Shown here piece after piece: positions 3,487 to 15,603 of a stretch of 21,812 bases of DNA; within the stretch, counting starts at the first letter, position 1, and each line of letters begins with the position of its first letter. The DNA is from an uncultured Aquificales bacterium. GTDB lineage: Bacteria > Thermosulfidibacterota > Thermosulfidibacteria > Thermosulfidibacterales > Thermosulfidibacteraceae. The stretch is from the NCBI GenBank assembly GCA_964453345.1, contig CAYVOC010000024.1:1-21812 (forward strand). The letters are read 5' to 3'. The notes under the pieces are model-generated. The model had not been told where the DNA came from. It saw nothing but the letters and a program-made list of their open reading frames with translations, and did no database searches. Made by a program: the position numbers and the translations under genes.

Positions 3487-5559
3487 TTATTCAGCCTGGG
3501 CCTCCCTGGCCTTCTCTATTATCTCTTTGGCTATCTGGGCGGGCACCTCCTCGTAATGGGAGAACTCCATGCTGTAGGTGCCCCTGCCGCCGGTTAGTGA
3601 TCTGAGTTCAGGTGCATAGGTTAACACCTCGGCTAAGGGGACAAGGGCCTTTATTACCTGGTTTTTGCCCTTGGCCTCAACTCCCATGATCTTGCCCCTT
3701 CTTGCGTTCAGGTCTCCTATCACATCCCCCACGCACTCATCGGGGACGATCACCTCCATCTTCATGATGGGTTCAAGTAGCACCGGCTTTGCCTTTGCCG
3801 CTCCCTCTTTGAAGGCCATGGATGCGGCTATCTGGAAGGCAAGGTCCGATGAGTCAACGGGGTGGTGTTTTCCGTCGTAGAGGGTGACCTTCACGTCAAC
3901 CACAGGGTATCCGGCAAGAACGCCCTCTTCCATGGCCTTTCTGACTCCCTTTTCCACCGAGGGGATGTATTGCCTTGGCACAACGCCGCCGACGATCTGA
4001 TCAACGAACTCAAAGCCGGCTCCCCTGGGCAGAGGCTCTATTCTCAGCCAGACGACTCCATACTGGCCCCTTCCGCCGCTCTGTTTGACGTATTTGCCCT
4101 GGACTTCTGCCTTGCCCTTGATGGTCTCTTTGTAGGGGACCTTGGGTTTTTGCAGCTCAACATCCACCCCGTAGCGCTTCTTCATCTTGCTGACAACGGT
4201 TTCTATGTGCATCTGGCCGAGACCGGATATGAGCAATTCTTTGGTCTGGGGATCCCTTCTCACCTCTAAGGACATGTCCTCTTCAAGGGCTCTTTGCAGA
4301 GCCGTTGAGATCTTGTCCTCGTCGGCGCGGCTCTTGGCCTTTATGGCATAGGATAGGATGGGCTGCGGGAACTCTATTTCGGGCAGTTTTATGGGGTTGG
4401 CGGGATCGCACAGGGTGTCTCCTGTTCGGGTTTCTTTGAGTTTTGGTATGGCCACTATGTCTCCTGCCACAAGTTCCGGTGCGGGTTTCTGTTCTTTGCC
4501 CACCATGAAGAAGGGCTTTGAGAGCTTTTCCTTGGTCTCCCTGTTGGGGTTGAGAACCGTTGTGTCGGGGCTTGCCTTGCCGGAGAAGATCCTTGCAAGG
4601 GAGATTTTGCCTGCGTAGGGATCGGAGAGGGTTTTGAATACGAGGGCGCAGAAGGGTTCATCAATGCTCGGTTTTCTCTCCTCCTCTTCTCCGGTTTCCG
4701 GATTTATTCCTTTGACCGGGGGCCTTTCGTAGGGGGAGGGCAGAAGCTCAACGATCTTGTCCAGAAGCAGGCTAACTCCCTTGTTTTCTACGGCTGAACC
4801 CACCATGGCGGGAAAGAGCTTGCCCTCAAGTATGGCTTCCTTGAAGGCCGGGATCAGCTCGTCCCTTGTAAGCTCTTCACCTTCAAGGTATTTCTCCAGT
4901 AGCTCGTCCTTGGTTTCGGCGATGTTTTCAATGAGGGCTTCCCTTGCCTTTTCTATGGTCTCTTTGAGGGCTTCAGGGGCGTCTCCTTCTTTCAGGTTCC
5001 CATTTTCAAAGTAGAAGGCCTTTCTTGCAAGAAGGTTGTATATGCCCACAAACTTTTCCCCTTCCATTATGGGAAGCTGGATGGGGGTGGGTTTTACGCC
5101 AAGGCTTTCCTTTATGTCCTCGAGGGTCTTTTCAAAGTTTGCGTTGGGCTTGTCCATCTCGTTTACGAAGATGATCCTGGGCAGGTTGTATTTGTTCATT
5201 ATGCCCCAGAGTTTTTCTGTCTGAACCTTCACCCCGTCAACGGCGGATACAAGAACCACGGCTCCGTCCACAACCCTCAGGGCGCCGTAGGTGTCTGATA
5301 TGAAGTTTGCCTGTCCGGGGGTGTCAACCAGGTTTATCTTGCAGTCCTTCCAGTTGAACTGGGCTATGGCCAGTTGCAGCGAGCAGCCCCTTTCCTTCTC
5401 TTCTTCGTCGTAGTCCATGACTGTGTTGCCGTCGGCCACGCTTCCCATGCGGGATATGACCCCCGCCGTGTATAGCATGGCCTCGGCTAAAGTCGTCTTT
5501 CCTGTTCCTCCATCGGCGAATAGACCAACATTTCTGATCTTAGCCTCCCTTTGCCCCAT
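3487..5559 (-). CDS. fusA: Elongation factor G paralog (EF-G2/FusA2-like)
   Basis: Full 690-aa EF-G architecture: IRNVGL..GKTT, DTPG, domain IV KQSGGRGQYG and HPVDSS, domain V LLEPIM...GDVIGDLNARRG. It is not flanked by rpsL/rpsG/tuf and has divergent G motifs, so it is probably a secondary copy. RBS AGGGGGA upstream. Confidence 0.9.
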   Translation of the reverse strand: MGQREAKIRNVGLFADGGTGKTTLAEAMLYTAGVISRMGSVADGNTVMDYDEEEKERGCSLQLAIAQFNWKDCKINLVDTPGQANFISDTYGALRVVDGAVVLVSAVDGVKVQTEKLWGIMNKYNLPRIIFVNEMDKPNANFEKTLEDIKESLGVKPTPIQLPIMEGEKFVGIYNLLARKAFYFENGNLKEGDAPEALKETIEKAREALIENIAETKDELLEKYLEGEELTRDELIPAFKEAILEGKLFPAMVGSAVENKGVSLLLDKIVELLPSPYERPPVKGINPETGEEEERKPSIDEPFCALVFKTLSDPYAGKISLARIFSGKASPDTTVLNPNRETKEKLSKPFFMVGKEQKPAPELVAGDIVAIPKLKETRTGDTLCDPANPIKLPEIEFPQPILSYAIKAKSRADEDKISTALQRALEEDMSLEVRRDPQTKELLISGLGQMHIETVVSKMKKRYGVDVELQKPKVPYKETIKGKAEVQGKYVKQSGGRGQYGVVWLRIEPLPRGAGFEFVDQIVGGVVPRQYIPSVEKGVRKAMEEGVLAGYPVVDVKVTLYDGKHHPVDSSDLAFQIAASMAFKEGAAKAKPVLLEPIMKMEVIVPDECVGDVIGDLNARRGKIMGVEAKGKNQVIKALVPLAEVLTYAPELRSLTGGRGTYSMEFSHYEEVPAQIAKEIIEKAREAQAE

Positions 5560-5636: not shown

Positions 5637-7652
5637 CTACTGGGTCAGATTCCTTATCGCTTTCCCGAGTTCAAAGATTGTGAACGGCTTTATGAGAACT
5701 CCTGTTCCCTTTTCAGAGCTTCTCGATAGAAGCTGACTGAGCCTGTCGGTGTATCCGGTCATGTAGATAACCTTCAGGGAGGGGTTTATGCTTCTCATTT
5801 TGTCGGCCAGTTCAAAGCCTCCCATGTTTGGCATGACCAGATCCGTTATGAGGAGTTCGTATTCGGCCGGCTTCTTCTCAAACTCGGCGAGGGCCTGCAC
5901 GGGATCGCTGAATCCCTCTGAGACTATATTTAAATTTTTCAGCATCTCCATCACCGCTGTGAGCAGCGGCTGGTTGTCCTCCACCACAATCACCTTGCCC
6001 TTCAGCTTGAGTTTGGGGTAGCTGGTGGGTTCTGCGTCCGGGGCGGGGGAGGATGCTTCCGGGGGTTCGCAGCGAGGAAGATAGATTTTGAAGGTGGTTC
6101 CCTTGCCGGGGGTGCTTTCAACGTCTATGATGCCGTTTAGCCCCTTGATGACGTTGAATGTGTAATACAATCCGAATCCCGTTCCCTTGTCGCCTTTGGT
6201 TGTGAAGAAGGGATCGAAAATCTTTTCTATATGCTCTTCCGGTATTCCGCATCCTGTGTCCTTCACCTCTATGACCACCGCATCCTCGGGATAGGGGGAT
6301 TCCGGGCTGAAGCGCTTGGTGTATAGTCGAATCTTGAGTGTGCCGCCTTCCGGCATGGCGTCCTGGGCGTTGGTGGTAAGGTTCATAAGTATGGAGTGGA
6401 TCTCTTCTGGGCTGGCTTCAACGGTGAGCGGTCTTTCGTCGTTTATCTCCAGCTCCACCCTTATGTTTTCGGGGAGGGTGTGGCTGATCAGTTTAACAAA
6501 TTCTTTCACCATGGGCTTGAGATCCACTATCTGCTTTTCGGATGTGGACTCCCTTGAGAAGAGAAGCAGGCTTGAGGTCAGGTTTGACGCCTTCTGGCAT
6601 TCCTTGAATATTATGTTCAGATATTCGAGAAGCTCTGGATCATTCCGGGCCCTTTCGATGCATAGCTGGGTAAAGCCCATTATCACATTGAGCAGATTGT
6701 TGAAGTCGTGGGCTATGCCCCCTGCGAGTATTCCGAGGGATTCCAGCTTCTGGGCCCTCAGCTTGATTCTGTCAAAGGCCTCCTTCTCCCGCAGGTATTC
6801 GTAGAAGGAGAAGGTGAAGTTCAGAAGGTGTTGAAAGTTTTCAAGGATATTGAGGTCTGCCAGGGTGAATCTCGGTTGATCCATGGTTCTGCAGAAGGAG
6901 ATGGTGCCGTATAGTTCCCCGTTGACCGTTATTGGGATTGCGATGGCGCTTGCGATGATCCCCTTTTTGTTCATGCAGGCCGAGGGCAGAAGGTCCGGAG
7001 GGTATTCCTCAAGTATGCAGGGTCGCTTGGTTGCAGCTGCTCTGCCCATGGCGCCCTTTCCCCATTCCACCTGCCGGGTCAGGGGCTTTATCCCTATCCA
7101 GTCCACTATTTCGATAAGCTGTCTTTTCTCATCCACTCTGCTCAGCATTACGGTGCTTGCGTCAAATAGGTTCTTGGTCTTTTCCAGAAGCTTTTTCGTG
7201 AAGATTTCGAAGGATATCTTTTCCTGGAACAGCTTCATGATTTCTGTGAATGTTTGGATGAGTGCGTTCTGCTTTTTTGTGATCTGTCTGAGGATGTCGC
7301 TTTCTATGATCCAGGAGATCTCTTCAAGTATTTCCTTTATTTCAGATTCGTTCCATGTTGCCGATTGATCTTCGGGTTCTATCATGATGAGTCCGTGAAA
7401 GTTGTTCAATTCAAATTTTAGCTTTGCACACAGATGATTCTCCATGTTTATGCATTTGTGCAGTATAAAGGGATCGTGGGGGCAGCTTTTCACCTTTTCT
7501 ATTTTTATTCTGAGCCGATCCTCATCGTCTAAGTAGTTTTTGCTGGAACTCGATGTTTCGTCGTAGACAAATACCCTTACTCTTCTGCAGGGCAGGATGC
7601 TTTTTAGCCTATGGAGCGCTCTTTCCGCGTATTTGTTTACCTTTCCTTCCAA
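5637..7652 (-). CDS. Cytoplasmic hybrid sensor histidine kinase/response regulator (GAF-HisKA-HATPase-REC)
   Basis: GAF segment ([15 protein letters not shown]...[17 protein letters not shown]...[11 protein letters not shown]), H-box [11 protein letters not shown]-box [13 protein letters not shown]1 DTGCGI, F-box FDPFFTTK, G2 GTGFGL, and receiver motifs VVEDN / [11 protein letters not shown] / MTGY / KPF. No transmembrane helix is evident. The TTG start overlaps the upstream stop and is uncertain. Confidence 0.9.
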
Positions 7653-8407
7653 ACCGGTTCCCTCTTTTCAAGAAAGGACATGATCCCCTCTTTGGCGTCT
7701 TCCATTCTTGCGTTCACCACAATGGCATTGGTGGCGTATTCGAGGGCTTCCAGATCGTTCATCTGGTATTGGCTGTGATAGACCCTCTTGCCCAGGGCGA
7801 TAACATTGAGGCTGAATCTTGTTATCAGGGAGGCAAGCTCTAAAGCTGTTTCCATCAGCCTGCCCTTGGGGGCTATCCTGTTTATAAGTCCGAAATGTAA
7901 GGCCTTTTCTGCGTCAATGGGTTCCCCTGTGAAGAGCATTTCCGCCATGATCTTTCTGGGTAGGTTTCTGCTCACCAGGGTGCTTGGGGTTGAGCAGAAG
8001 AAGCCGAATTTGATTCCGGGGGTCATGAAAAGGGCGCCTTCTTCCGCAACTGCAAGCTCGCAGGCGGCTGCAAGCTGGCAGCCCGCACCGGCCGCGACAC
8101 CGTGAACGGCTGCAATGCTCACCTGGGGGATCTCCCTCAGGGTTCTGAACATCTTCTGGCACTCAAGGAAGACGTCCAGAACATCCTTTACGCCTTCCTG
8201 GAGCACATCTCCGTAGAAGTGCCCGGAGCAAAAGGCCTTTCCTTCGCCTCTAAATATGACAACCTTTACCCTTTTCTCTTCGCCGATTCTTTCCAGAAGT
8301 TTTCTGATTTCTTTTAGCATATCAATTGTTAGGGCGTTTCTTTTGTCCGGATTGTTCAGTGTGATTATTCCCACCTGATCCCTTTCCGAATACAGGACAA
8401 GGTCCAT
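7637..8407 (-). CDS. Enoyl-CoA hydratase/isomerase (crotonase) family protein, ECHDC3-like
   Basis: Motifs [95 protein letters not shown]. Confidence 0.9.
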   Translation of the reverse strand: MDLVLYSERDQVGIITLNNPDKRNALTIDMLKEIRKLLERIGEEKRVKVVIFRGEGKAFCSGHFYGDVLQEGVKDVLDVFLECQKMFRTLREIPQVSIAAVHGVAAGAGCQLAAACELAVAEEGALFMTPGIKFGFFCSTPSTLVSRNLPRKIMAEMLFTGEPIDAEKALHFGLINRIAPKGRLMETALELASLITRFSLNVIALGKRVYHSQYQMNDLEALEYATNAIVVNARMEDAKEGIMSFLEKREPVWKER

Positions 8408-8416
8408 CTTCTCTCC

Positions 8417-8827
8417 CTATATCTTTATCTGAAGCGCTTTAAATGGGCACACCGGCACGCACAGCTCGCATCCCACGCATTTCTCTTTGTCAAAGTTCAC
8501 CTTCATGGTTTTTTTGTCTATGCTCAGTGCACCTGTGGGGCATATGGCCGTGCATGCGCCGCAGTGGGTGCAGAGATCCTCGTTCTTCTCTATGTCCGAG
8601 GCAAGGAACCTTACCCCGACCCCCACCTCCTTCAGGAATTCAATGCCCTTTTTGAAGTCGTCCTCTTCTCCTATCAGCTCTAACACCATCAGCCCCTGCT
8701 CGTTGGGCGTGATTTTGGCCTTTAGAATGTTGAACATAAGCCGGTGCCTTGAGTGCAACGTGTAAATTATGGGTTTGTCCCAGGTGTGTTTCGGAAACGT
8801 CAGGACCACCTTTTTGGCTACCTTCAA
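8417..8827 (-). CDS. NIL-domain / 2x[4Fe-4S] ferredoxin fusion protein
   Basis: N-terminal NIL (ACT-like) domain (VVLTFP...KPIIYTL...FNILKAKITPNEQGLMVLEL) and two CxxCxxCxxxCP motifs (CTHCGACTAICP, CVGCELCVPVCP). TTG start 7 nt after GGAGG. Confidence 0.88.
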   Translation of the reverse strand: MKVAKKVVLTFPKHTWDKPIIYTLHSRHRLMFNILKAKITPNEQGLMVLELIGEEDDFKKGIEFLKEVGVGVRFLASDIEKNEDLCTHCGACTAICPTGALSIDKKTMKVNFDKEKCVGCELCVPVCPFKALQIKI

Positions 8828-9696
8828 CCTTCATCCTCCCATGTGCTCAGTTTCTCTATCACCTTCGGGATAAGCCAGGTGGCTGTTTCTCTTAAAGAGC
8901 CTCCTGCCAGAACCACCTGGAGCCTGTTGTTTGTGTGTTCACGGGCGAACTCCTTGACCATGTCTTCTATTTTTAAGAAGCACTCCCTTGAAAGGCCCAG
9001 GCTCCCGTAATCCCCCCTGCAGGTATCGAATCCCATATACCAGAAAAAGAGATCGTGCTTGAAGCTCGATGCTATCTCGAGGGCTTTCTCAACAAGCTTG
9101 AGATACTCCGCATCGGGATCGCCTCCGTAGGTTACCCATGTTGCGTCGAAGTCGTGTCTCAATCCGTCTTCGCTGTGCCATTCCCTGTCGCAGAGGCAGA
9201 TGTGCAGGGTATTGGGGTCCCCTGTCAGTTCGAGCAGCTGTCGGGTGCCGTCCCCGTGGTGGGCGTCCGTGTCAAGGATGATGAATCTTAAGCTGGGATC
9301 TATTTTCTCCCTTGCGTTGGTTATGGCGAGTATCACATCGTTGAAGCAGCAGGCCCCCCAGAAGTAGTTTCTCCCTGCATGGTGCCCGCCGCAGCCTATG
9401 AAGCAGAAGGCGTTGGTGATTTCCCCCTTAAGGATCTTTTCCGTTGCCTCAACAACCCCTCCTGCGCTTTCATAAGCTGTTGAGCACAGGGGCATCTTTT
9501 CCACCTCGCTCACCATCTGCGGGGTGTGGATTTTCAGAACCAGATCCTTGCTTACAGGGGGGGATGTGAATAGCTGGATGTTTTTTCTTTCGAGGAGGTG
9601 AACCATTGCGTCGGGAAAATCTGCAAGCCTGTTGCCTCCCGTAAGGTAACTTTTTCTGCTGAAGGATGGATGGTAGAAGACACCGGTTGTCTTCAC
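8824..9696 (-). CDS. Zn-dependent histone deacetylase (HDAC/AcuC) family hydrolase
   Basis: GGHHAG (His pair), WGACCFND, LDTDAHHGDGT (Zn ligands D,H), GFDT (third Zn ligand) and C-terminal VLAGGS. GTG start after GGAGG. Confidence 0.85.
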   Translation of the reverse strand: MKTTGVFYHPSFSRKSYLTGGNRLADFPDAMVHLLERKNIQLFTSPPVSKDLVLKIHTPQMVSEVEKMPLCSTAYESAGGVVEATEKILKGEITNAFCFIGCGGHHAGRNYFWGACCFNDVILAITNAREKIDPSLRFIILDTDAHHGDGTRQLLELTGDPNTLHICLCDREWHSEDGLRHDFDATWVTYGGDPDAEYLKLVEKALEIASSFKHDLFFWYMGFDTCRGDYGSLGLSRECFLKIEDMVKEFAREHTNNRLQVVLAGGSLRETATWLIPKVIEKLSTWEDEG

Positions 9697-9697
9697 T

Positions 9698-10090
9698 TCA
9701 TCCTCCCAGGACTTTCTTGAGGCTTTCCGGTAGTTCCCTTTTTCTCCATTCCCTGTCTATGCAGACGAAAACAAGTTCGACCTCTGCCACCTTAAGGTTA
9801 TTGTTCAAAAAATCTATCCTGAAGGTTACGGATGTTCTTCCGATTTTTTCCACCCTTACAACGGGTATGATGAAGGCAGGGTATCTGACGGGAGATGTGA
9901 ATCTGCCCCTTGATGCCACAACGGGCATTCCGTAGCCTTCATCTGTGTTTCTAAAAAAACTATCCGGATCCAGGCCTCTCTCCCTCAAAAAGTCCTCAAC
10001 CGCCTGGTGGGCATACCTGTGATAGGTGGAGTAATACACAACCCCGTAGGGATCGGTGTCTCCGAACCTTATCCAGAAGCCGCCAGCCAT
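9698..10090 (-). CDS. Acyl-CoA thioesterase, 4-hydroxybenzoyl-CoA thioesterase (4HBT)/YbgC hot-dog family
   Basis: IRFGDTDPYGVVYYSTY matches the 4HBT-I signature (RFGDxDPxGxV) with the catalytic Asp. Also has PVVASRGRFTSPVRY, KIGRTSVTF and a C-terminal ELPESLK. Confidence 0.88.
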   Translation of the reverse strand: MAGGFWIRFGDTDPYGVVYYSTYHRYAHQAVEDFLRERGLDPDSFFRNTDEGYGMPVVASRGRFTSPVRYPAFIIPVVRVEKIGRTSVTFRIDFLNNNLKVAEVELVFVCIDREWRKRELPESLKKVLGG

Positions 10091-10098
10091 TAAGAATC

Positions 10099-11058
10099 TT
10101 ATACCGCAATGGGGGCTTCCTCTTCAACCTCTTTTAGGACGGTGCAGGTTCTTCTGTTCCTCTCGGCGTCCCTGACCTTGGATATCTCTTCGAGCCTTTT
10201 TCTATATGTGTCCTTGTTGGGAAGGTAACCTTTTTCAACTATGGTATCTATCACCTCTCTGTAGAAGGAGACTATCTTCGAGATGAGCCCAGGGTTGTAT
10301 TCCCTGCCCTGTATCTTCAGGCAGTCCACGCCTGCGGCTATCCACTCCTCCAGGTTTTCGAAGGCCAGAAACATATCGTTTCTGAGTATCACCTTCTTCC
10401 CTTCCCACTTCCAGTTTGCCTTGCAGATTCTGTGGCAGTATCCTCCCCTGTTGGGGCTTCCGTGGAAGTGGTTTTTGCCAGATTCATCGTATACCCACTG
10501 ATGCTTTACGTAGCTGCTGAAGAGGCACTTGCCTAAGTAGGTGAAGCAGGTGTTCGAGTGCAGAAACACCTCTATCCCCACCGGCACCTGCTCCTTTATC
10601 TGTCTGGCCTCCTCTGGCGTGAGGTTGCAGGGGAGGACCACCATGTCCGCTCCCAGCTCCCTGTAAAACCACATGTCTTCTGTGTTTACAGCGTTCATCC
10701 CGGCGCTAACATGCACCTCCATTTCGGGGGCTATCTCTTTTATTACCGGGATGGCTCCCACATCGTTTATTATCACCCCATGAACTCCCATACGGGAAAG
10801 CCTTGAGATGCACTCCTTGAACATGGGATACTCGAAGCTTGAGAAGGCGCTGTTTATGGCAACCCTCACCTGCTTGTTCCTTCTTTGGGCCTCACCGGCT
10901 ATTTCCTCTATCTGTTCCAACTTCAGCTCGTATTCCTTGGTGCGCCTGCTCCAGCCGTAAAGCCCCACATACACCGCATCGGCTCCCGCATCAAAGCAGG
11001 CCCTCGCCATCTCTATGCTTCCGCCTGGTCCTAAAAGGGAGACCCTATTTTGCCTCAT
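10099..11058 (-). CDS. Peptidase U32 family Fe-S protein, UbiU/TrhP/RlhA-like (copy 2)
   Basis: Motifs LLGPGGS, AGADAVYVG, IINDVG, VHVS, IEVFLHSNTC, Cys cluster CX6CX29CX3C (CFTYLGKC...GYCHRIC) and GVDCLKIQGR. The start was moved to the ATG at 11058 because GGAGGGAGG lies directly upstream. Confidence 0.88.
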   Translation of the reverse strand: MRQNRVSLLGPGGSIEMARACFDAGADAVYVGLYGWSRRTKEYELKLEQIEEIAGEAQRRNKQVRVAINSAFSSFEYPMFKECISRLSRMGVHGVIINDVGAIPVIKEIAPEMEVHVSAGMNAVNTEDMWFYRELGADMVVLPCNLTPEEARQIKEQVPVGIEVFLHSNTCFTYLGKCLFSSYVKHQWVYDESGKNHFHGSPNRGGYCHRICKANWKWEGKKVILRNDMFLAFENLEEWIAAGVDCLKIQGREYNPGLISKIVSFYREVIDTIVEKGYLPNKDTYRKRLEEISKVRDAERNRRTCTVLKEVEEEAPIAV

Positions 11059-11998
11059 GTCCCTCCCTCCTTTCCGTTTCGTGAACACACTCTCCTCCGA
11101 ACAGCTTGCCTATGTATCTGTGCCCCGATCTTCTGAAGAGATAGCCGTTGCACACACCGTTCGGGCAGAGGCCTGCAATTGTCCCTATCCAGTCGGGATC
11201 TATGTAGCTGTCTTCGCCCTCCTCTATTTTTATTAATGCCTCCCGGTATATTCTCGCCATGGTGTTTATGTAGTCCGGGGATTCCCTGAGTCCCTGTATG
11301 TGAAAGATTCTAAATCCTCTGTAGTGCAGCGTTCCGAGATACTCTAAGGTTACCCAGTCCTTGCCCGATAGCGTTGCAAAGCCAATGTTTTTAAGTTTCC
11401 ACTTGCCCGATGTTAGCCAGATGCCATCACATATGGTTTCGCATTCCCTCGGAGAATACTCTTTGATGAAACAGTTTTCGGATATTCCCAGGGGCAGCTT
11501 GCCCTGGGCGAAAAAGGAGATCTCTGCCGGTGAGTTTTCCTTTATGAACTGTATCTCTTCCAAGGAGAGTTCCGGGTTTAGAAACACCCTTTTTACCCCA
11601 AAATTGCTCAGGACCCTTACGGTCTCGTGGGTGTAGATGTTTGAGAAGAACCCCATGTGAATCTCTTTGAACAGCTTATTTTTGCTAACTATCCTGAGGA
11701 GACCCAGGTTGTGAACCTCTATCCCGTCGAGGGGCAGCTCCGATGCCCTTTCGATGAAGGGAACGATCCTTTTAAGATGCGCATTTCTGGGAACGGCGAA
11801 GGTTGAAAGATAAGCCTTTTTTCCGAACTCTTTGACCATGGAGACCGCTTCCTTGAGCCTGTCGAGGTTTCTGCTCAGGGCTTCGGGATACTCCATGCAG
11901 GTGGGATCGCCCAGATATATCCCGTCTATCATATTGAGATCCAGCCTTTTTAGCTTATCAAGGGTTTCAGCGTGGGTTGTTATTTCAAAGCTTTTCAT
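11045..11998 (-). CDS. Peptidase U32 family Fe-S protein, UbiV-like
   Basis: UbiV-type signatures: IYLGDPTC (cf. YLGEAVC), GKKAYLST, NIYTHET, GVKRVFLNPELS, GKLPLGISENCF...ECETIC (cf. GHLPLAYSARCF...ECETCC) and C-terminal CNGY. The start was set at ATG 11998 (RBS GGAG). Confidence 0.88.
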   Translation of the reverse strand: MKSFEITTHAETLDKLKRLDLNMIDGIYLGDPTCMEYPEALSRNLDRLKEAVSMVKEFGKKAYLSTFAVPRNAHLKRIVPFIERASELPLDGIEVHNLGLLRIVSKNKLFKEIHMGFFSNIYTHETVRVLSNFGVKRVFLNPELSLEEIQFIKENSPAEISFFAQGKLPLGISENCFIKEYSPRECETICDGIWLTSGKWKLKNIGFATLSGKDWVTLEYLGTLHYRGFRIFHIQGLRESPDYINTMARIYREALIKIEEGEDSYIDPDWIGTIAGLCPNGVCNGYLFRRSGHRYIGKLFGGECVHETERREGHEAK

Positions 11999-12821
11999 AC
12001 TCTTTCTCCAGATCAAAAATGATGCCTTCAACAATTCTCTTTAAAAGTTCAAAGGGCATTCCCCGACCTCCAATCTTTAGGTGCCTTATCCCCAGTGTTG
12101 CAAGCTCTAAGGGTGAATATAATTTGTGATTGGTGAGGGGCGCAAGGGAGAAGAAGCTTTCTGAATCCGTAAACCACTCCTGAGCGCACGGCCTGAAGCA
12201 TATGCCGCTTCTTTTGGCGCTGCCCTCCCATATGAGGGATCTCACTCCGCAGTTGGTTATTATCATATCAAAGAAGGAGCTGAGCCTGCATATGCCGAGG
12301 TAGGTGGCTATGCACTTGATACCGTGAACCATTATTTCAAGCTCCGCTCCGGCGTTAACGGCGGCTCTGTTTATCTCGTCTATCTCCTGCAGGGAAAGGT
12401 TGGGGGACAGAACCATCCTTTTGGCGCCAAGCTCTGCGTAGAAGACGACATCCTGGGCGTTCAGTAGAGATGTTCCCAAGCTCGCATGAACTTCGCAACC
12501 CCACTCACTCAAGCGTTTTATGATAGATACATCTGATGCTATTACGGCATCTATGCCGCATTCCAGGGCCTTTTCTAAGGTTTTCAGGGCCATTTTGGTT
12601 TCAAAGGGGGAGGGCATAAGGTTGAAGGAAAGGTATATTCTTTTCCCGAGGCTGTGGGTTGTGTCGGTGGCGATTCTCAGCTCCTTAAGGTTGAATTCGT
12701 TTCCCCTGTTGGCCCTGGACCATCCGGCTATTCCCACATAAATCGCATCTATGGGCAGTCCGAGGACTTTATCAAGATCTCTTATGGATGCGCACGGAGC
12801 TATGAGTTCCACGCCGAACAT
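11985..12821 (-). CDS. Peptidase U32 family Fe-S protein, UbiU/TrhP/RlhA-like (copy 1)
   Basis: Motifs ELIAP, DAIYVGIAGWSRA, IDAVIASD, EVHAS, GAKRMVLS..LSLQEI, LEIMVHG.KC, Cys cluster CX7CX29CX3C and LKIGGR. The start was set at ATG 12821 (RBS GAGG); the longer ORF start lies in the AT-rich promoter gap. Confidence 0.85.
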   Translation of the reverse strand: MFGVELIAPCASIRDLDKVLGLPIDAIYVGIAGWSRANRGNEFNLKELRIATDTTHSLGKRIYLSFNLMPSPFETKMALKTLEKALECGIDAVIASDVSIIKRLSEWGCEVHASLGTSLLNAQDVVFYAELGAKRMVLSPNLSLQEIDEINRAAVNAGAELEIMVHGIKCIATYLGICRLSSFFDMIITNCGVRSLIWEGSAKRSGICFRPCAQEWFTDSESFFSLAPLTNHKLYSPLELATLGIRHLKIGGRGMPFELLKRIVEGIIFDLEKEYEKL

Positions 12822-12840
12822 TTTGAACCTCGGTTTTATA

Positions 12841-12925
12841 CAAATATGTGAATCGGAAATAAAAGTCAAGCTGAAATTATTGACTAAGGGCAATTTTTAT
12901 GGCTTTAATCTAAACTTGAGGTTTA
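12841..12925. promoter_or_regulatory. Divergent promoter region between the U32 operon and the CoA ligase
   Basis: AT-rich 127-bp gap. Plus strand: TTGACT (12880-12885), 18 nt, TTTAAT (12904-12909). Minus strand: TTGACT (12869-12864) with a weaker -10 (TATTTG at 17 nt). Palindrome TAAAC-N5-GTTTA at 12911-12925. Confidence 0.55.
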
Positions 12926-12948
12926 AAAATTATCACAGGAGGGCAGCT

Positions 12949-14634
12949 ATGGCAAAGATACCTGAGAATTATCTGCCTCCAAGGGAGCTGTGGCCCACTT
13001 ATTCTTATCCTGATGAGTTGAAACCCTTTTTAAAAGAACCCACCAATCTTGCGGATGTTCTACTCGATAGGCACATAAGGGCCGGTCTTGAAAATCAGCC
13101 CGCCATCTACTGCGGCGGTAAGATGGTCACCTACGGCGAAGTCTATGAGATGGCGAATAGACTTGCCAATGCCCTTATCGATCTGGGGGTTGAGAAGCAG
13201 GACAGGGTGACTCTGAGGATGGTGAATTCCATTGAGGCGATAGTGGCGAACTTTGCCCTTCAGAAGATAGGTGCTATCCCCGTTCCCACAAGCCCCCTCT
13301 GGTCCAAGGATGAAATCGCCTATGTCTTTAACAACGCAGAGGCCAAGTTTGCCTTTGTGAGCTATCCTCTCTTGGAGGAGGCTGCCAAGGCCAAGGATAA
13401 GCTACAGCACACCAAGAACTTCATCGTGATAGGCGGTCCGGCCGATGAGGTCAGGAGTGCCGGATTCATCTATTTCCAGGATCTTCTTGAGAAGGGCAGC
13501 AACTCCAGGGTGTGTGAGGATGTTTCTCTGGATGACATAGGTGTCATCCTTTACACCTCTGGAACCACAGGTTTTCCCAAGGGCGTTGCTCACTTCGTTA
13601 GAGAGGTGATCTCCTCCGCATATCTGGTGAATAAATACGTGTGGAGACTGGTGGTGGGCGATGTTCTGGGAGGCTCTGCTCCTGTCAGCTTTGCCGCTGG
13701 ATACGGGACCTTTGCCATAATCCCCTGGTTTGGCGGAGCCACCATCTCCATGATGGGCAGGTTCACTCCCGAAGGGCTGATGGAGATGATAGAGAAGACA
13801 AGGGTTACGGTTCTCACGGGTCTTCCCACCGCTTACAGAAGGCTGCTTCAATTCGAGAACTTCGATAAATACGATATAAGTTCCCTCAGGATGTGCACAA
13901 GCGGTGGAGACGCCCTTGGCGTTGAGACCTACAAGGCCTGGATGGAGAAGACGGGGCTTCCCATTTACGAGGGGCTTGGTGCCACCGAAATGGTGCATCT
14001 TATCACTTCCAATGCAGTCAACATGAGGCCCAAGCCCGGATCCATAGGAATTCCCATCCCCGGCTACGATATCAAGGTCATTGATGACAACGGCAATGAG
14101 TGCAAGCCCGGTGAGGTTGGAAAGTTGACCGTCGTAGGGCCGACAGGACCCCTCTACTGGAAGCCCTATGAAGACAACAACAGACTCTATGAGGAGCAGA
14201 AGAAGGCGGTTCAGAATGGAAGGATCAGGCTCGGTGATGCCGTTTACATGGACGAGGATGGCTACATCTTCTTCGTTTCAAGAGAGTCTGACATGATCAA
14301 GAGCTCCGGATACAGGATCGGTCCGGGTGAGGTTGAGGAGGCACTCAAGAAGCATCCCGCCGTTAAGGACGCCGGCGTTATTGGCTCTCCCGATCCCGTG
14401 CGCGGTGAGATAACCAAGGCCTACATAATCCTCGAAGAGGGCTATGAGCCTTCCGAGGAGCTGGCAAGGGAGATCGTCGAGTCCTGTAAGGAATACATCG
14501 CTGTTTACAAGCTGCCCAGAGCCGTTTGCTTCTGTGACCAGCTGCCTGTGACGCCTACCGGTAAGCTTCTCAGAAGAGTGCTCAAACAGTGGGATAAGGA
14601 AGATAAATATCCCACAATTAGAATATCTCAGTAG
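12949..14634 (+). CDS. Aromatic acid-CoA ligase (benzoate / 2-aminobenzoate-CoA ligase-like, ANL superfamily)
   Basis: A3 ILYTSGTTGFPKG, A5 IYEGLGATEM, PGSIGIPIPGY, A8 RESDMIKSSGYRIGPGEVE, A10 LPVTPTGKLLR. The N-terminal LPPRELWP..YP...NLA..LLDRH is typical of the 2-aminobenzoate-CoA ligase subfamily. Start ATG 12949 follows AGGAGG. The substrate is inferred, not shown. Confidence 0.85.
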   Translation: MAKIPENYLPPRELWPTYSYPDELKPFLKEPTNLADVLLDRHIRAGLENQPAIYCGGKMVTYGEVYEMANRLANALIDLGVEKQDRVTLRMVNSIEAIVANFALQKIGAIPVPTSPLWSKDEIAYVFNNAEAKFAFVSYPLLEEAAKAKDKLQHTKNFIVIGGPADEVRSAGFIYFQDLLEKGSNSRVCEDVSLDDIGVILYTSGTTGFPKGVAHFVREVISSAYLVNKYVWRLVVGDVLGGSAPVSFAAGYGTFAIIPWFGGATISMMGRFTPEGLMEMIEKTRVTVLTGLPTAYRRLLQFENFDKYDISSLRMCTSGGDALGVETYKAWMEKTGLPIYEGLGATEMVHLITSNAVNMRPKPGSIGIPIPGYDIKVIDDNGNECKPGEVGKLTVVGPTGPLYWKPYEDNNRLYEEQKKAVQNGRIRLGDAVYMDEDGYIFFVSRESDMIKSSGYRIGPGEVEEALKKHPAVKDAGVIGSPDPVRGEITKAYIILEEGYEPSEELAREIVESCKEYIAVYKLPRAVCFCDQLPVTPTGKLLRRVLKQWDKEDKYPTIRISQ

Positions 14635-14650: not shown

Positions 14651-14693
14651 AGGGGGGCCTCAACCCGGGGCCCCCTTTGAATTGTTTTTTGTC
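14651..14693 (+). terminator. Rho-independent terminator after the CoA ligase
   Basis: Hairpin AGGGGGGCCTC-AACCC-GGGGCCCCCTT (11-bp stem with two G-U pairs, 14651-14677) followed by a T-rich tract (TGAATTGTTTTTTGT), 16 nt after the stop. Confidence 0.7.
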
Positions 14694-14733
14694 TGTTGCT
14701 TTTTCCCCTCCGGTGTGGCATCTCGTCCTTGGA

Positions 14734-15603
14734 ATGCGCAAGGTTGTAAAATACAAACAGACTTTTGAAAGCGGAGAGGTTCGCTGCAGGGTATGTTACT
14801 TTAAGTGCAGGTTATCCCCCGGGGATGTGGGCAGGTGTCTTGTGCGCACAAACATAGGCGGAGAGCTATACAATGTGGCCTATGGTCTTCTAAGCAGAAT
14901 GGATGTTGTTCATGCCCGTGATCTGCCCATGGCGGAGGGGAAAGGGCTGTGGCTCAAGGTGGGGTCGGTGGGGTGCAATCTCAGGTGTCCGGGATGTGCC
15001 TTCTGGGACCTTGCCTGGAACCGCCCTGTAGGGGGAGAGGGGACAAGGAGAGTGGAGCCTGCTCAGCTTGTTGAGGAGGCTGTTTCAAATGGATGTGTGG
15101 GGCTGTGTTTCGGCTACACTGAACCTTTGGCTGTTTTAGAGTATGTTCAGGAGGCCTTTGCCATCGCCAAAAAAAGGGGCATGAACACGGCCCTATACAC
15201 CAACGGGACCTTTACTTCTGAGGTGGCTCAGGATATTGTGAAGGTGTGTGATGCCTTTATTGTAGATCTCAAGGCCTATTCAAGGGAGGCTTTTAGGAGG
15301 GTTTCCGGTAACGCTTATATGTCCGTTGAGGTAATGGAGACGGTGGAGGAGCTTTTCAGGCTTGGGAGCAGGGTGGAGCTTATAACGAGGCTGATTCCGG
15401 GCTATAACGATTCGGTCTTTGAAATCCGCTCAATTGCCCGGTGGATTGCCATGAAACTTTCCCCCGATGTGGTGTGGCATCTGGTCCCCTTCAGGCCCGT
15501 TCCCAACCTATACCATGTTCCCGCCACCGGTGCGGATAGGCTTATAGAGGCCTCCCGTATAGCTGAGGAAGAGGGAGTAAAAAGGGTAATTCTGCATCAA
15601 TGA
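14734..15603 (+). CDS. Radical SAM protein, AmmeMemoRadiSam (AmrS)/PflA-like
   Basis: N-terminal CxxCxxxC...GxxGxCxVRxN motif ([23 protein letters not shown]), radical SAM CxxxCxxC (GCNLRCPGC), [31 protein letters not shown]. The start was placed at ATG 14734 because the ORF-track start overlaps the terminator. Confidence 0.82.

Follow-up and report, generated by a model that had tools for sequence, protein, structure and literature searches.

A U32 gene trio beside a coenzyme A ligase

We analysed a 21,812-nucleotide (nt) stretch of DNA from an uncultured Aquificales bacterium (hereafter the window), which is the whole of contig C24 of its source genome, G000 (1.51 Mb, rated 99.9% complete), and which holds three consecutive genes for U32-family proteins next to a gene for an AMP-forming acyl/aryl-coenzyme A (CoA) ligase. 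The three U32 genes lie on the minus strand and were named in order of transcription: U32a (11985–12821, 278 amino acids (aa), PF01136 at 80 bits), U32b (11045–11998, 317 aa from its ATG, in an open reading frame (ORF) reaching 12034, PF01136 at 106 bits) and U32c (10099–11058, 319 aa from its ATG, ORF to 11088, PF01136 at 150 bits). They are followed on the same strand by genes for a hotdog-fold acyl-CoA thioesterase (9698–10090, 130 aa, 4HBT_2 at 55.8 bits), a short, divergent HDAC-family protein (8824–9696, 290 aa, PF00850 at 112.2 bits), an NIL-domain ferredoxin with two [4Fe-4S] motifs (8417–8827, 136 aa, Pfam NIL at 53.4 bits and two Fer4 matches), a crotonase-family enzyme (7637–8407, 256 aa, Pfam ECH_1 at 169 bits) and a hybrid GAF histidine kinase with a receiver domain (5637–7652, 671 aa, Pfam GAF, HisKA, HATPase_c and Response_reg). 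The ligase gene (12949–14634, plus strand, 561 aa, Pfam AMP-binding and AMP-binding_C) diverges from U32a across an intergenic region of 127 nt read from the sequence (12822–12948).

An original prediction, made from the sequence of this DNA alone, had named these genes, and both the ORF list and the Pfam scan returned them where it had placed them. Its description of tight minus-strand junctions, ranging from a 16-nt overlap to a 9-nt gap, also held when the sequence was read: U32a/U32b and U32b/U32c each overlap by 14 nt with the ATG starts given above, followed by an 8-nt gap (U32c/thioesterase), a 1-nt gap (thioesterase/HDAC-like), a 4-nt overlap (HDAC-like/ferredoxin), a 9-nt gap (ferredoxin/crotonase) and a 16-nt overlap (crotonase/kinase). 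The ligase starts at the ATG at 12949, which is preceded by AGGAGG, and not at 12751. Because a strong terminator-like hairpin (14651–14677, 11 pairs, 8 of them G-C) lies 3' of the ligase gene, this gene appears to be a transcription unit of its own. A promoter scan of the 127-nt divergent gap returned 12 sites against a mean of 8.4 in shuffled controls, which is not above the controls.

Conservation within the phylum

The window's phylum is represented in our collection by 18 species genomes from one order and three families. A U32b ortholog was present in 17 of them, and the sole miss was a genome that is 71% complete. Gene order was compared across 13 loci of relatives, with the loci reaching far enough taken as the denominator in each case. 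The order U32a-U32b-U32c was kept in all 13, and wherever the locus extended to them, the HDAC-like gene (10/10) and the NIL-ferredoxin gene (9/9) lay downstream of the trio. The ligase was divergently adjacent in 11/13 loci; the two without an adjacent ligase both belong to family f2, where the ligase ortholog is on another contig. The conserved block, found in 17 of the 18 species genomes, is a ligase gene diverging from U32a-U32b-U32c, a thioesterase gene in most loci, an HDAC-like gene and an NIL-ferredoxin gene. Since this arrangement is conserved among relatives, rather than being seen in the window alone, it is not a product of chance.

The crotonase and the hybrid kinase, which the original prediction had placed in the same operon, dropped out of the conserved block on this comparison. 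Neither adjoined the block in any of the seven relatives' loci that run more than 1 kb past the ferredoxin, and the kinase had no match beside the block in any of the 13 loci. The crotonase ortholog of one relative (G004) is on another contig, and two further relatives (G002 and G010) have only paralogs that are 31–33% identical. Both genes are outside the conserved system, and their tight junctions are real but specific to the window's genome.

Phylogenetic position and cysteine motifs of the U32 proteins

U32 proteins are a large iron-sulfur family whose known members hydroxylate without O2, and their known substrates are of three kinds: prenylated ubiquinone precursors (UbiU and UbiV), tRNA U34 (TrhP) and 23S rRNA C2501 (RlhA). 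U32a, U32b and U32c were the only U32 matches in G000, and the Pfam scan of the three reported PF01136 alone, with neither Peptidase_U32_C nor DUF3656, the domain whose co-occurrence with the U32 motif defines RlhA according to an excerpt of PMC5727448. The best NCBIfam match of all three, over the N-terminal half, was the TrhP model, at 133.8 bits for U32c and 115.9 and 79.1 bits for the other two, against a cut-off of 534 bits. None reached the cut-off of the UbiU model NF047963 (440 bits; U32c 122.9, U32a 76.1 and U32b 57.4 bits) or that of the UbiV model NF047965 (275 bits; U32b 66.1, U32c 32.4 and U32a 30.9 bits). Among solved structures, a U32c query had no match at E 0.001 or better, and the U32b profile returned two weak IMP dehydrogenase chains and nothing else.

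Trees were built with FastTree (223 U32 sequences) and IQ-TREE (61 sequences) from the U32 proteins of the loci, four Escherichia coli references, three further UbiU/UbiV pairs and TrhP-like proteins from seven additional genomes (12 for FastTree). With IQ-TREE, where the UbiU and UbiV clades rest on four references each, the U32b clade (support 99) joined the UbiV clade (100) at support 99, which makes U32b the sister group of UbiV, outside the UbiV clade itself. U32a and U32c formed a clade of their own (99), split into branches of the U32a type (84) and the U32c type (82); UbiU (99), a TrhP-like group (88) and RlhA fell on the U32b/UbiV side, across a branch with support 99 from U32a and U32c. 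The U32a/U32c clade excludes UbiU, TrhP and RlhA, and may correspond to one of the unnamed among the twelve U32 subfamilies of Kimura et al. 2017, most of which are described as uncharacterised in an excerpt of PMC10990095. The tree and the NCBIfam scores, which are far below the cut-offs, thus confirm that the three proteins stand outside the canonical TrhP, RlhA, UbiU and UbiV clades. The labels first given to them, UbiU-like, UbiV-like and UbiU-like in gene order, need revision in part: the middle label is sustained by the sister relationship of U32b to UbiV, and "UbiU-like" is inapt for U32a and U32c because both lie in a clade of their own.

Five Cys residues, including C34, C176, C186 and C190, were invariant across all 76 U32b-type sequences, and the first four invariant ones are spaced in the manner of the UbiV cluster ligands reported by Pelosi et al. 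2019. The four-Cys [4Fe-4S] pattern present in U32b is found in part only in U32a and U32c. Cys178, Cys208 and Cys212 were invariant in the U32a type (36/36), with C170 in 17/36, and Cys178 and Cys212 were invariant in the U32c type (91/91), with C208 in 73/91 and C171 in 45/91. Both types have a conserved GSxxRxG loop before CxxxC (GSPNRGG in U32c) that was not seen in the aligned E. coli proteins.

Reach of the U32 module beyond the phylum

Matches to the U32b profile at E 1e-15 or better were found in 119 of 401 sampled genomes. At 320 bits or more, the U32b type was confined to the 17 genomes of the window's phylum and to one genome of a second phylum, G103; the next best match elsewhere stood at E 1e-35, and these weaker matches were either TrhP-like proteins (about 400 aa) or two-domain proteins (about 830 aa). 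The second phylum is represented by three genomes, two of which have a U32b-type gene. In an exhaustive search with the U32b profile, 8013 proteins had E values of at most 0.001 and 362 of at most 1e-30, and about 27 cluster representatives scored above 220 bits, ahead of the first two-domain proteins. Patterns drawn from the U32b alignment and scanned over the genome collection recovered 16 loci, all from the window's phylum; the patterns were too specific to inform on other phyla, and this approach was set aside.

For metagenomes, counts were taken from the best 80 of 206 related stretches, on which U32b was 35–66% identical to that of the window, except on L107, where it was 100% identical. 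A U32 gene lay on both sides of U32b at 43 of these 80 loci; among the rest, 26 had flanks too short to tell, 10 had a downstream U32 gene only and 1 an upstream one only. One metagenome group has four U32 genes, the extra ones all of the U32c type. The 14-nt overlaps in the window, the order kept in 13/13 relatives and in the second phylum, and the flanking U32 genes in metagenomes together argue that the three U32 genes form one module.

A census of neighbouring genes covered 134 (72 + 62) of the 152 ORFs that have a length of 170 aa or more and lie no further than 4.5 kb from a trio on metagenome stretches from outside the window's phylum. The commonest families were PPDK_N (8) and phosphoenolpyruvate (PEP)-utilisers (5), ABC_tran (8) and Peripla_BP_6 (6), which are parts of Liv-type ABC transporters, class I/II aminotransferases (7), CoA_transf_3 (3), AMP-binding (2), short-chain dehydrogenases (3), IclR (3) and MFS_3 (2). 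These neighbour families suggest that the trio module serves several small-molecule pathways, with CoA enzymes within contig reach in some of them. Long ORFs without a Pfam match were also seen beside metagenome trios, but several are probably antisense artefacts in G+C-rich DNA, and one cluster of them was discarded after it was found to overlap U32 genes on the opposite strand.

Two of the metagenome contexts are described here in their own right. On L123–L145 (for example L140:4331–15652), the gene order is aminotransferase, U32, U32b, U32, NMT1/THI5-like protein, U32, an 888-aa PPDK_N/PEP-utiliser, short-chain dehydrogenase and MFS_3 exporter, an arrangement suggestive of a cluster for biosynthesis or export, in which the module occurs without CoA enzymes. 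On L172 (1898–4657), a 920-aa fusion of a GNAT and an ADP-forming acyl-CoA synthetase, of Pat-like architecture, is encoded upstream of a U32 trio, about 3.2 kb away.

Association of the trio with CoA-thioester enzymes

The association of the trio with acyl-CoA enzymes recurs in other arrangements outside the window's phylum. In G103, the trio is followed by genes for a PF03061-type hotdog protein, CoaE, a MoxR-type ATPase, an ortholog of the HDAC-like protein (52% identical), a GNAT and an AAA/VWA protein, and 7–10 kb further along the same contig is an operon in which two CoA_transf_3 genes and three small ORFs are joined by genes for a ligase (55% identity to that of the window) and for an alpha/beta hydrolase. 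Metagenome contigs of group C repeat the gene order of this operon. On L148, L149 and L184, a pair of CoA_transf_3 genes is followed by small ORFs, a ligase gene, an IclR regulator gene and the trio, in that order; the ligase there is 48–49% identical to that of the window over its full length and has the N-terminal motif in common with it, U32b is about 38% identical to the window's U32b, and the parts of the G103 operon are 44–59% identical to those on L149. G000 has an orthologous CoA_transf_3 pair with a zinc-ribbon small protein (46–49% identical) on contig C23 (1158–4454), and a GNAT gene faces this operon (C23:1158–5403, locus L202). C23 and C24 are each 21812 bases long and differ in sequence, a coincidence of assembly.

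The ligase and the CoA-transferase also follow the U32b type across the 401 genomes. Ligase orthologs (at least 55% identity) were found in the 17 phylum genomes and G103, with one further genome at 40%, and orthologs of the family-III CoA-transferase in the 17 phylum genomes and G103 and none elsewhere. The U32 trio, the ligase and the CoA-transferase share one distribution, comprising two independent lineages among 401 genomes, in addition to their linkage in three arrangements. The expectation that the link between U32 genes and the ligase would be conserved in other genomes is therefore supported by 11 of 13 relatives' loci, by the metagenome contigs and by this common distribution, and that of a link to a thioesterase by the hotdog proteins of two Pfam families that follow U32c in two phyla. 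The original prediction named the ligase and the thioesterase as CoA-thioester partners of the U32 genes and missed the CoA-transferase operon, which is on another contig.

Each phylum genome also has a ligase paralog that is 39–47% identical; the paralogous ligase gene on C17 has housekeeping neighbours. The window ligase is not the only acyl-CoA synthetase of its genome, a possibility ruled out by eight AMP-binding matches in G000. Alongside these eight AMP-binding genes, G000 has about nine family-III CoA-transferase genes (four in tandem at C2:72.3–77.8 kb, others at C34:0.2–2.8 kb and on C23 and C4, as located by tblastn), and its acyl-CoA metabolism is unusually rich for a 1.5-Mb genome. 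Several crotonase paralogs were seen in relatives of G000. Another AMP-binding ligase gene at C61:135–4088 is followed by two HGD-D genes (2-hydroxyacyl-CoA dehydratase/benzoyl-CoA reductase type), a pairing present in G000, G002 and G010 and not found in G004 or G103.

We then considered what the sequence of the ligase implies about its substrate. Its pocket motif, GLGATEMVHLITSN, resembles GIGSTEMLHIFLSN of the benzoate-CoA ligase 2v7b and GIGCTENFHIFISN of the anthranilate-CoA ligase 4wv3, and is unlike WWMTETG of 9g79 (the Trp-Trp of acetyl-CoA synthetase) and GFGQTETV of 3etc. We read this as a putative aryl-type pocket. The earlier description of the enzyme as benzoate/2-aminobenzoate-type is thus upheld by the pocket motif and not by the score to the benzoate-CoA ligase family, to which we return below. 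Comparison of the CoA-transferase with solved structures gave generic family-III matches only (formyl-CoA transferase at 109 bits and a benzylsuccinate CoA-transferase subunit at 81 bits), with no hint of its substrate.

The thioesterase, the HDAC-like protein and the NIL-ferredoxin

The thioesterase scored 55.8 bits to 4HBT_2 (cut-off 25.5) and 46.2 bits to TIGR00051 (YbgC/FadM, cut-off 68.7), and has the N-terminal GDTD motif. The PF03061 hotdog protein of the second phylum occupies the same slot after U32c as the 4HBT_2 protein of the window.

HDAC-family enzymes have a catalytic Tyr in a GGGY motif, a His-His pair and Asp/His/Asp zinc ligands. The HDAC-like protein of the window matched PF00850 well above the cut-off of 27.9 bits, over model positions 78–288 only. 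GGHHA, DTDAHHGDG and GFD were invariant in 7/7 aligned sequences, whereas all six short forms (the window's and five orthologs) have GGS or GGA, with no Tyr, in place of the GGGGY of the full-length relative. Judged by its motifs, the protein may have a weak or altered amidohydrolase activity. That its gene stays next to the trio in two phyla, with GNAT genes nearby, would fit either a role in the pathway or control of the ligase through acyl-lysine. The protein and its orthologs also carry conserved Cys pairs (ACCFND and LCLCD).

NIL-ferredoxins work with COG1900 proteins in homocysteine synthesis. G000 has a single NIL gene and a single HcyBio (COG1900) gene, the latter on contig C42 with no adjoining ferredoxin, and one of each was present in all four phylum genomes covered by both searches. 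In G103, HcyBio was absent and the trio locus had no NIL-ferredoxin match, NIL not having been searched genome-wide there. The NIL-ferredoxin may, to judge from its family, serve homocysteine synthesis, the U32 enzyme or both. Its proposed role as electron carrier to a hydroxylase is weakened, because it is encoded by the only NIL gene in a genome that has HcyBio, and because the second phylum lacks both (NIL being considered at the trio locus).

A candidate U32 enzyme in a CoA-thioester pathway

The explanation we favour, tentatively and at a little short of an even chance, is that the trio encodes an undescribed heteromeric U32 iron-sulfur (Fe-S) enzyme acting in a pathway that handles a carboxylic acid, most likely aromatic or heteroaromatic, as its CoA thioester. 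U32a, U32b and U32c would be subunits of one Fe-S enzyme built like UbiU-UbiV, with U32b as the UbiV-like subunit. The ligase and the family-III CoA-transferase pair encoded on C23 would make the acyl-CoA, the U32 enzyme would modify it, and the hotdog thioesterase would free the product. The HDAC-like protein would be an accessory, either as an amidohydrolase of the pathway or as a deacylase regulating the ligase. The modification is most likely an O2-independent, prephenate-using hydroxylation of a ring carbon, as proposed for other U32 enzymes; prephenate-dependent hydroxylation is put forward as common to U32 proteins in an excerpt of PMC10990095, and by this analogy hydroxylation by the trio is likely. 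A prephenate dehydratase gene was present in 5/5 genomes, so the shikimate branch runs and prephenate should be available. The presence of this gene also rules out a U32 protein standing in for a missing prephenate dehydratase.

The resemblance to the UbiU-UbiV system of E. coli and other Pseudomonadota is close in several respects. As in that system, the U32 genes are adjacent and translationally coupled, and encode proteins of about 280–330 aa that have no RNA-type domain at the C terminus; U32b and UbiV are sister groups, four invariant Cys residues of U32b are spaced like the UbiV ligands, and the expected oxygen donor should be at hand. However, three subunits are predicted rather than two, and those that are not UbiV-like belong to a separate clade. 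The original prediction had noted the lack of UbiT, and this was borne out, since SCP2 (PF02036)/UbiT had no match in any of the five genomes. Menaquinone is made by the futalosine route in the window's genome (two MqnA/MqnD-family genes and one UbiA-family gene), and the partners of the trio are a CoA ligase, CoA-transferases and a thioesterase rather than prenyl-quinone enzymes.

Several observations weigh against a CoA-thioester pathway built on the trio. The CoA-transferase genes of G000 are on a different contig from the trio, ligase and trio are on different contigs in 3/3 genomes of family f2, and the thioesterase, found in 10/12 relatives' loci, is absent from genus g2. Most trio contexts in metagenomes have no CoA enzyme. 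The statistical weight of the co-occurrence is modest because it comes from two independent lineages and one group of related metagenome contigs, and kin are not independent. For the ligase, the best match among solved structures was 9g79, named acetyl-CoA synthetase (287 bits), ahead of 4wv3 (269 bits), and its score to the benzoate-CoA ligase family TIGR02262 was 291.2 bits, below the cut-off of 375.25. With regard to the cluster, the first Cys of the CX6C motif is kept in only 17/36 U32a-type and 45/91 U32c-type sequences, part of which misalignment may explain.

A bolder and more specific version, which we regard as possible but doubtful, is that the U32 proteins would here form the first O2-independent enzyme of their family that hydroxylates aryl- or heteroaryl-CoA thioesters, a heterotrimer of one UbiV-like and two new-clade subunits that takes its oxygen from prephenate, and that several other anaerobic pathways represented on metagenome contigs would employ the module too, either together with Liv-type uptake systems or in the company of an exporter, an aminotransferase and a PEP-utilising enzyme. 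Molybdenum hydroxylases such as 2-furoyl-CoA dehydrogenase hydroxylate aryl- and heteroaryl-CoA thioesters with oxygen from water. The proposed logic would be alike, namely a ligase, a ring hydroxylation of the thioester that can proceed anaerobically, and hydrolysis. Unlike those molybdopterin enzymes, the trio would be an Fe-S TIM-barrel U32 enzyme, with prephenate rather than water as the expected oxygen donor. None of the loci read showed a gene for a molybdenum hydroxylase.

Alternative explanations

We weighed four other accounts of the trio, of which the strongest keeps the CoA-linked acid as substrate and changes the chemistry. The trio may act on the same acid without hydroxylating it, as a new Fe-S enzyme for another step such as dehydration/hydration, reduction or ring opening, in which case the hydroxylating habit of the family would not extend to this separate clade; we consider this unlikely. 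U32a and U32c fall outside every clade of known function and carry the GSxxRxG insert before CxxxC, operons of CoA-transferase and ligase genes are typical of 2-hydroxyacyl-CoA dehydratase pathways, and excerpts of PMC10990095 and PMC11574389 state that direct in-vitro hydroxylase activity has not been shown for any U32 protein. Nevertheless, every genetically supported U32 function in those excerpts and in that of PMC5727448 is a hydroxylation, U32b is sister to UbiV with a four-Cys pattern like that of UbiV, and the genome already has HGD-D-type dehydratase-like genes beside another ligase.

Rather less probable, in our judgement, is that the neighbours belong to separate functional units and share an operon, the genome being compact. 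A regulated pair would then be formed by the ligase and the HDAC-like protein, the NIL-ferredoxin would serve COG1900 homocysteine synthesis, and the trio would have nothing to do with CoA. The model for such a pair is AcsA/AcuABC of Bacillus subtilis, in which the genes are divergently arranged and the deacetylase reactivates the ligase. The window likewise has an AMP-forming ligase gene divergent from an operon containing an HDAC-family gene, and the ligase keeps the C-terminal TPTGK lysine. GNAT genes lie beside the HDAC-like gene in G103 and divergently beside the CoA-transferase genes in G000, and the Pat-like GNAT/ADP-forming synthetase fusion is found about 3.2 kb upstream of one metagenome trio. 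For the ferredoxin, this account can point to the single NIL and single HcyBio genes, to the lack of a ferredoxin of its own beside HcyBio, and to G103, which has neither HcyBio nor an NIL-ferredoxin in its cluster. In contrast with AcsA/AcuA-AcuC, however, the HDAC-like gene is separated from the ligase gene by three U32 genes and a thioesterase gene, its short product (290 aa) has no GGGY tyrosine, and the ligase pocket appears benzoate-type rather than that of an acetyl-CoA synthetase. The HDAC-like gene is also beside the trio in G103 even though the ligase is 7–10 kb off. Separate units would account for the HDAC-like protein and the ferredoxin, but not for the way in which the trio, in three lineages, keeps to the distribution and the contigs of the ligase and the CoA-transferases.

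It is quite improbable that the trio modifies an isoprenoid quinone or a protein-bound aromatic residue, giving a hydroxylated menaquinone derivative or an O2-free protein quinone cofactor. The genome does make menaquinone, and UbiU-UbiV act on a prenylated ring according to an excerpt of PMC10990095, but no quinone gene was near the trio in any locus read, SCP2/UbiT had no match in any of the five genomes searched, and no conserved candidate target protein adjoins the trio. The futalosine route needs no ring hydroxylase.

Slightly less probable again, hydroxylation of RNA by the trio in place of TrhP and/or RlhA could draw on the commonest known job of the family, on a genome, 99.9% complete, that has no U32 match besides these three, on TrhP as the best-scoring NCBIfam model within a shared Pfam family, and on the nearest U32b relatives outside its own type being two-domain proteins of about 830 aa, the form described for RlhA homologs in an excerpt of PMC5727448, but it is opposed by scores of 79–134 bits against the TrhP cut-off of 534, by a Pfam scan reporting neither Peptidase_U32_C nor DUF3656, by tree branches outside the TrhP-like and RlhA ones, by CmoA and CmoB having no match over cut-off in any of the five genomes, and by a U32b type found in only 18/401 genomes with a narrow distribution that tracks CoA enzymes.

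Other genes of the window

The genes flanking this cluster are of the housekeeping kind (EF-G-like, RecA, PilT-like, AlaS, PurD, a GH57 enzyme and NeuB). Its EF-G-type GTPase gene (3487–5559) is full length (690 aa, all five domains) and adjoins a SPOR-domain gene. A radical SAM gene (14677–15603) lies between the ligase terminator and recA; its best match, the AmmeMemoRadiSam system enzyme, scored 154 bits where the cut-off is 220, and the gene in its place in the same-genus relative G002 is only 40% identical.

Implications for the U32 family

No paper on U32 proteins with a CoA ligase, benzoyl-CoA or a thioesterase was found in a full-text search, which subscription journals are mostly outside, and by title and opening of the abstract, the papers listed on prephenate-dependent hydroxylation all concern ubiquinone, RNA or DNA bases. 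The link of the trio with enzymes that convert acids to CoA thioesters points to a new kind of substrate for the U32 family, and the occurrence of the gene set in all adequately complete genomes of a small phylum associated with thermophiles suggests a function that is not dispensed with. Three small proteins, a ligase and possibly a ferredoxin would make up a compact, defined system for testing prephenate-dependent hydroxylation in vitro. If the proposed hydroxylation of a CoA-bound ring is true, it would be a third way to hydroxylate small aromatic acids, beside O2-dependent oxygenases and water-dependent molybdenum enzymes, and would extend the U32 family to soluble CoA-bound metabolites.

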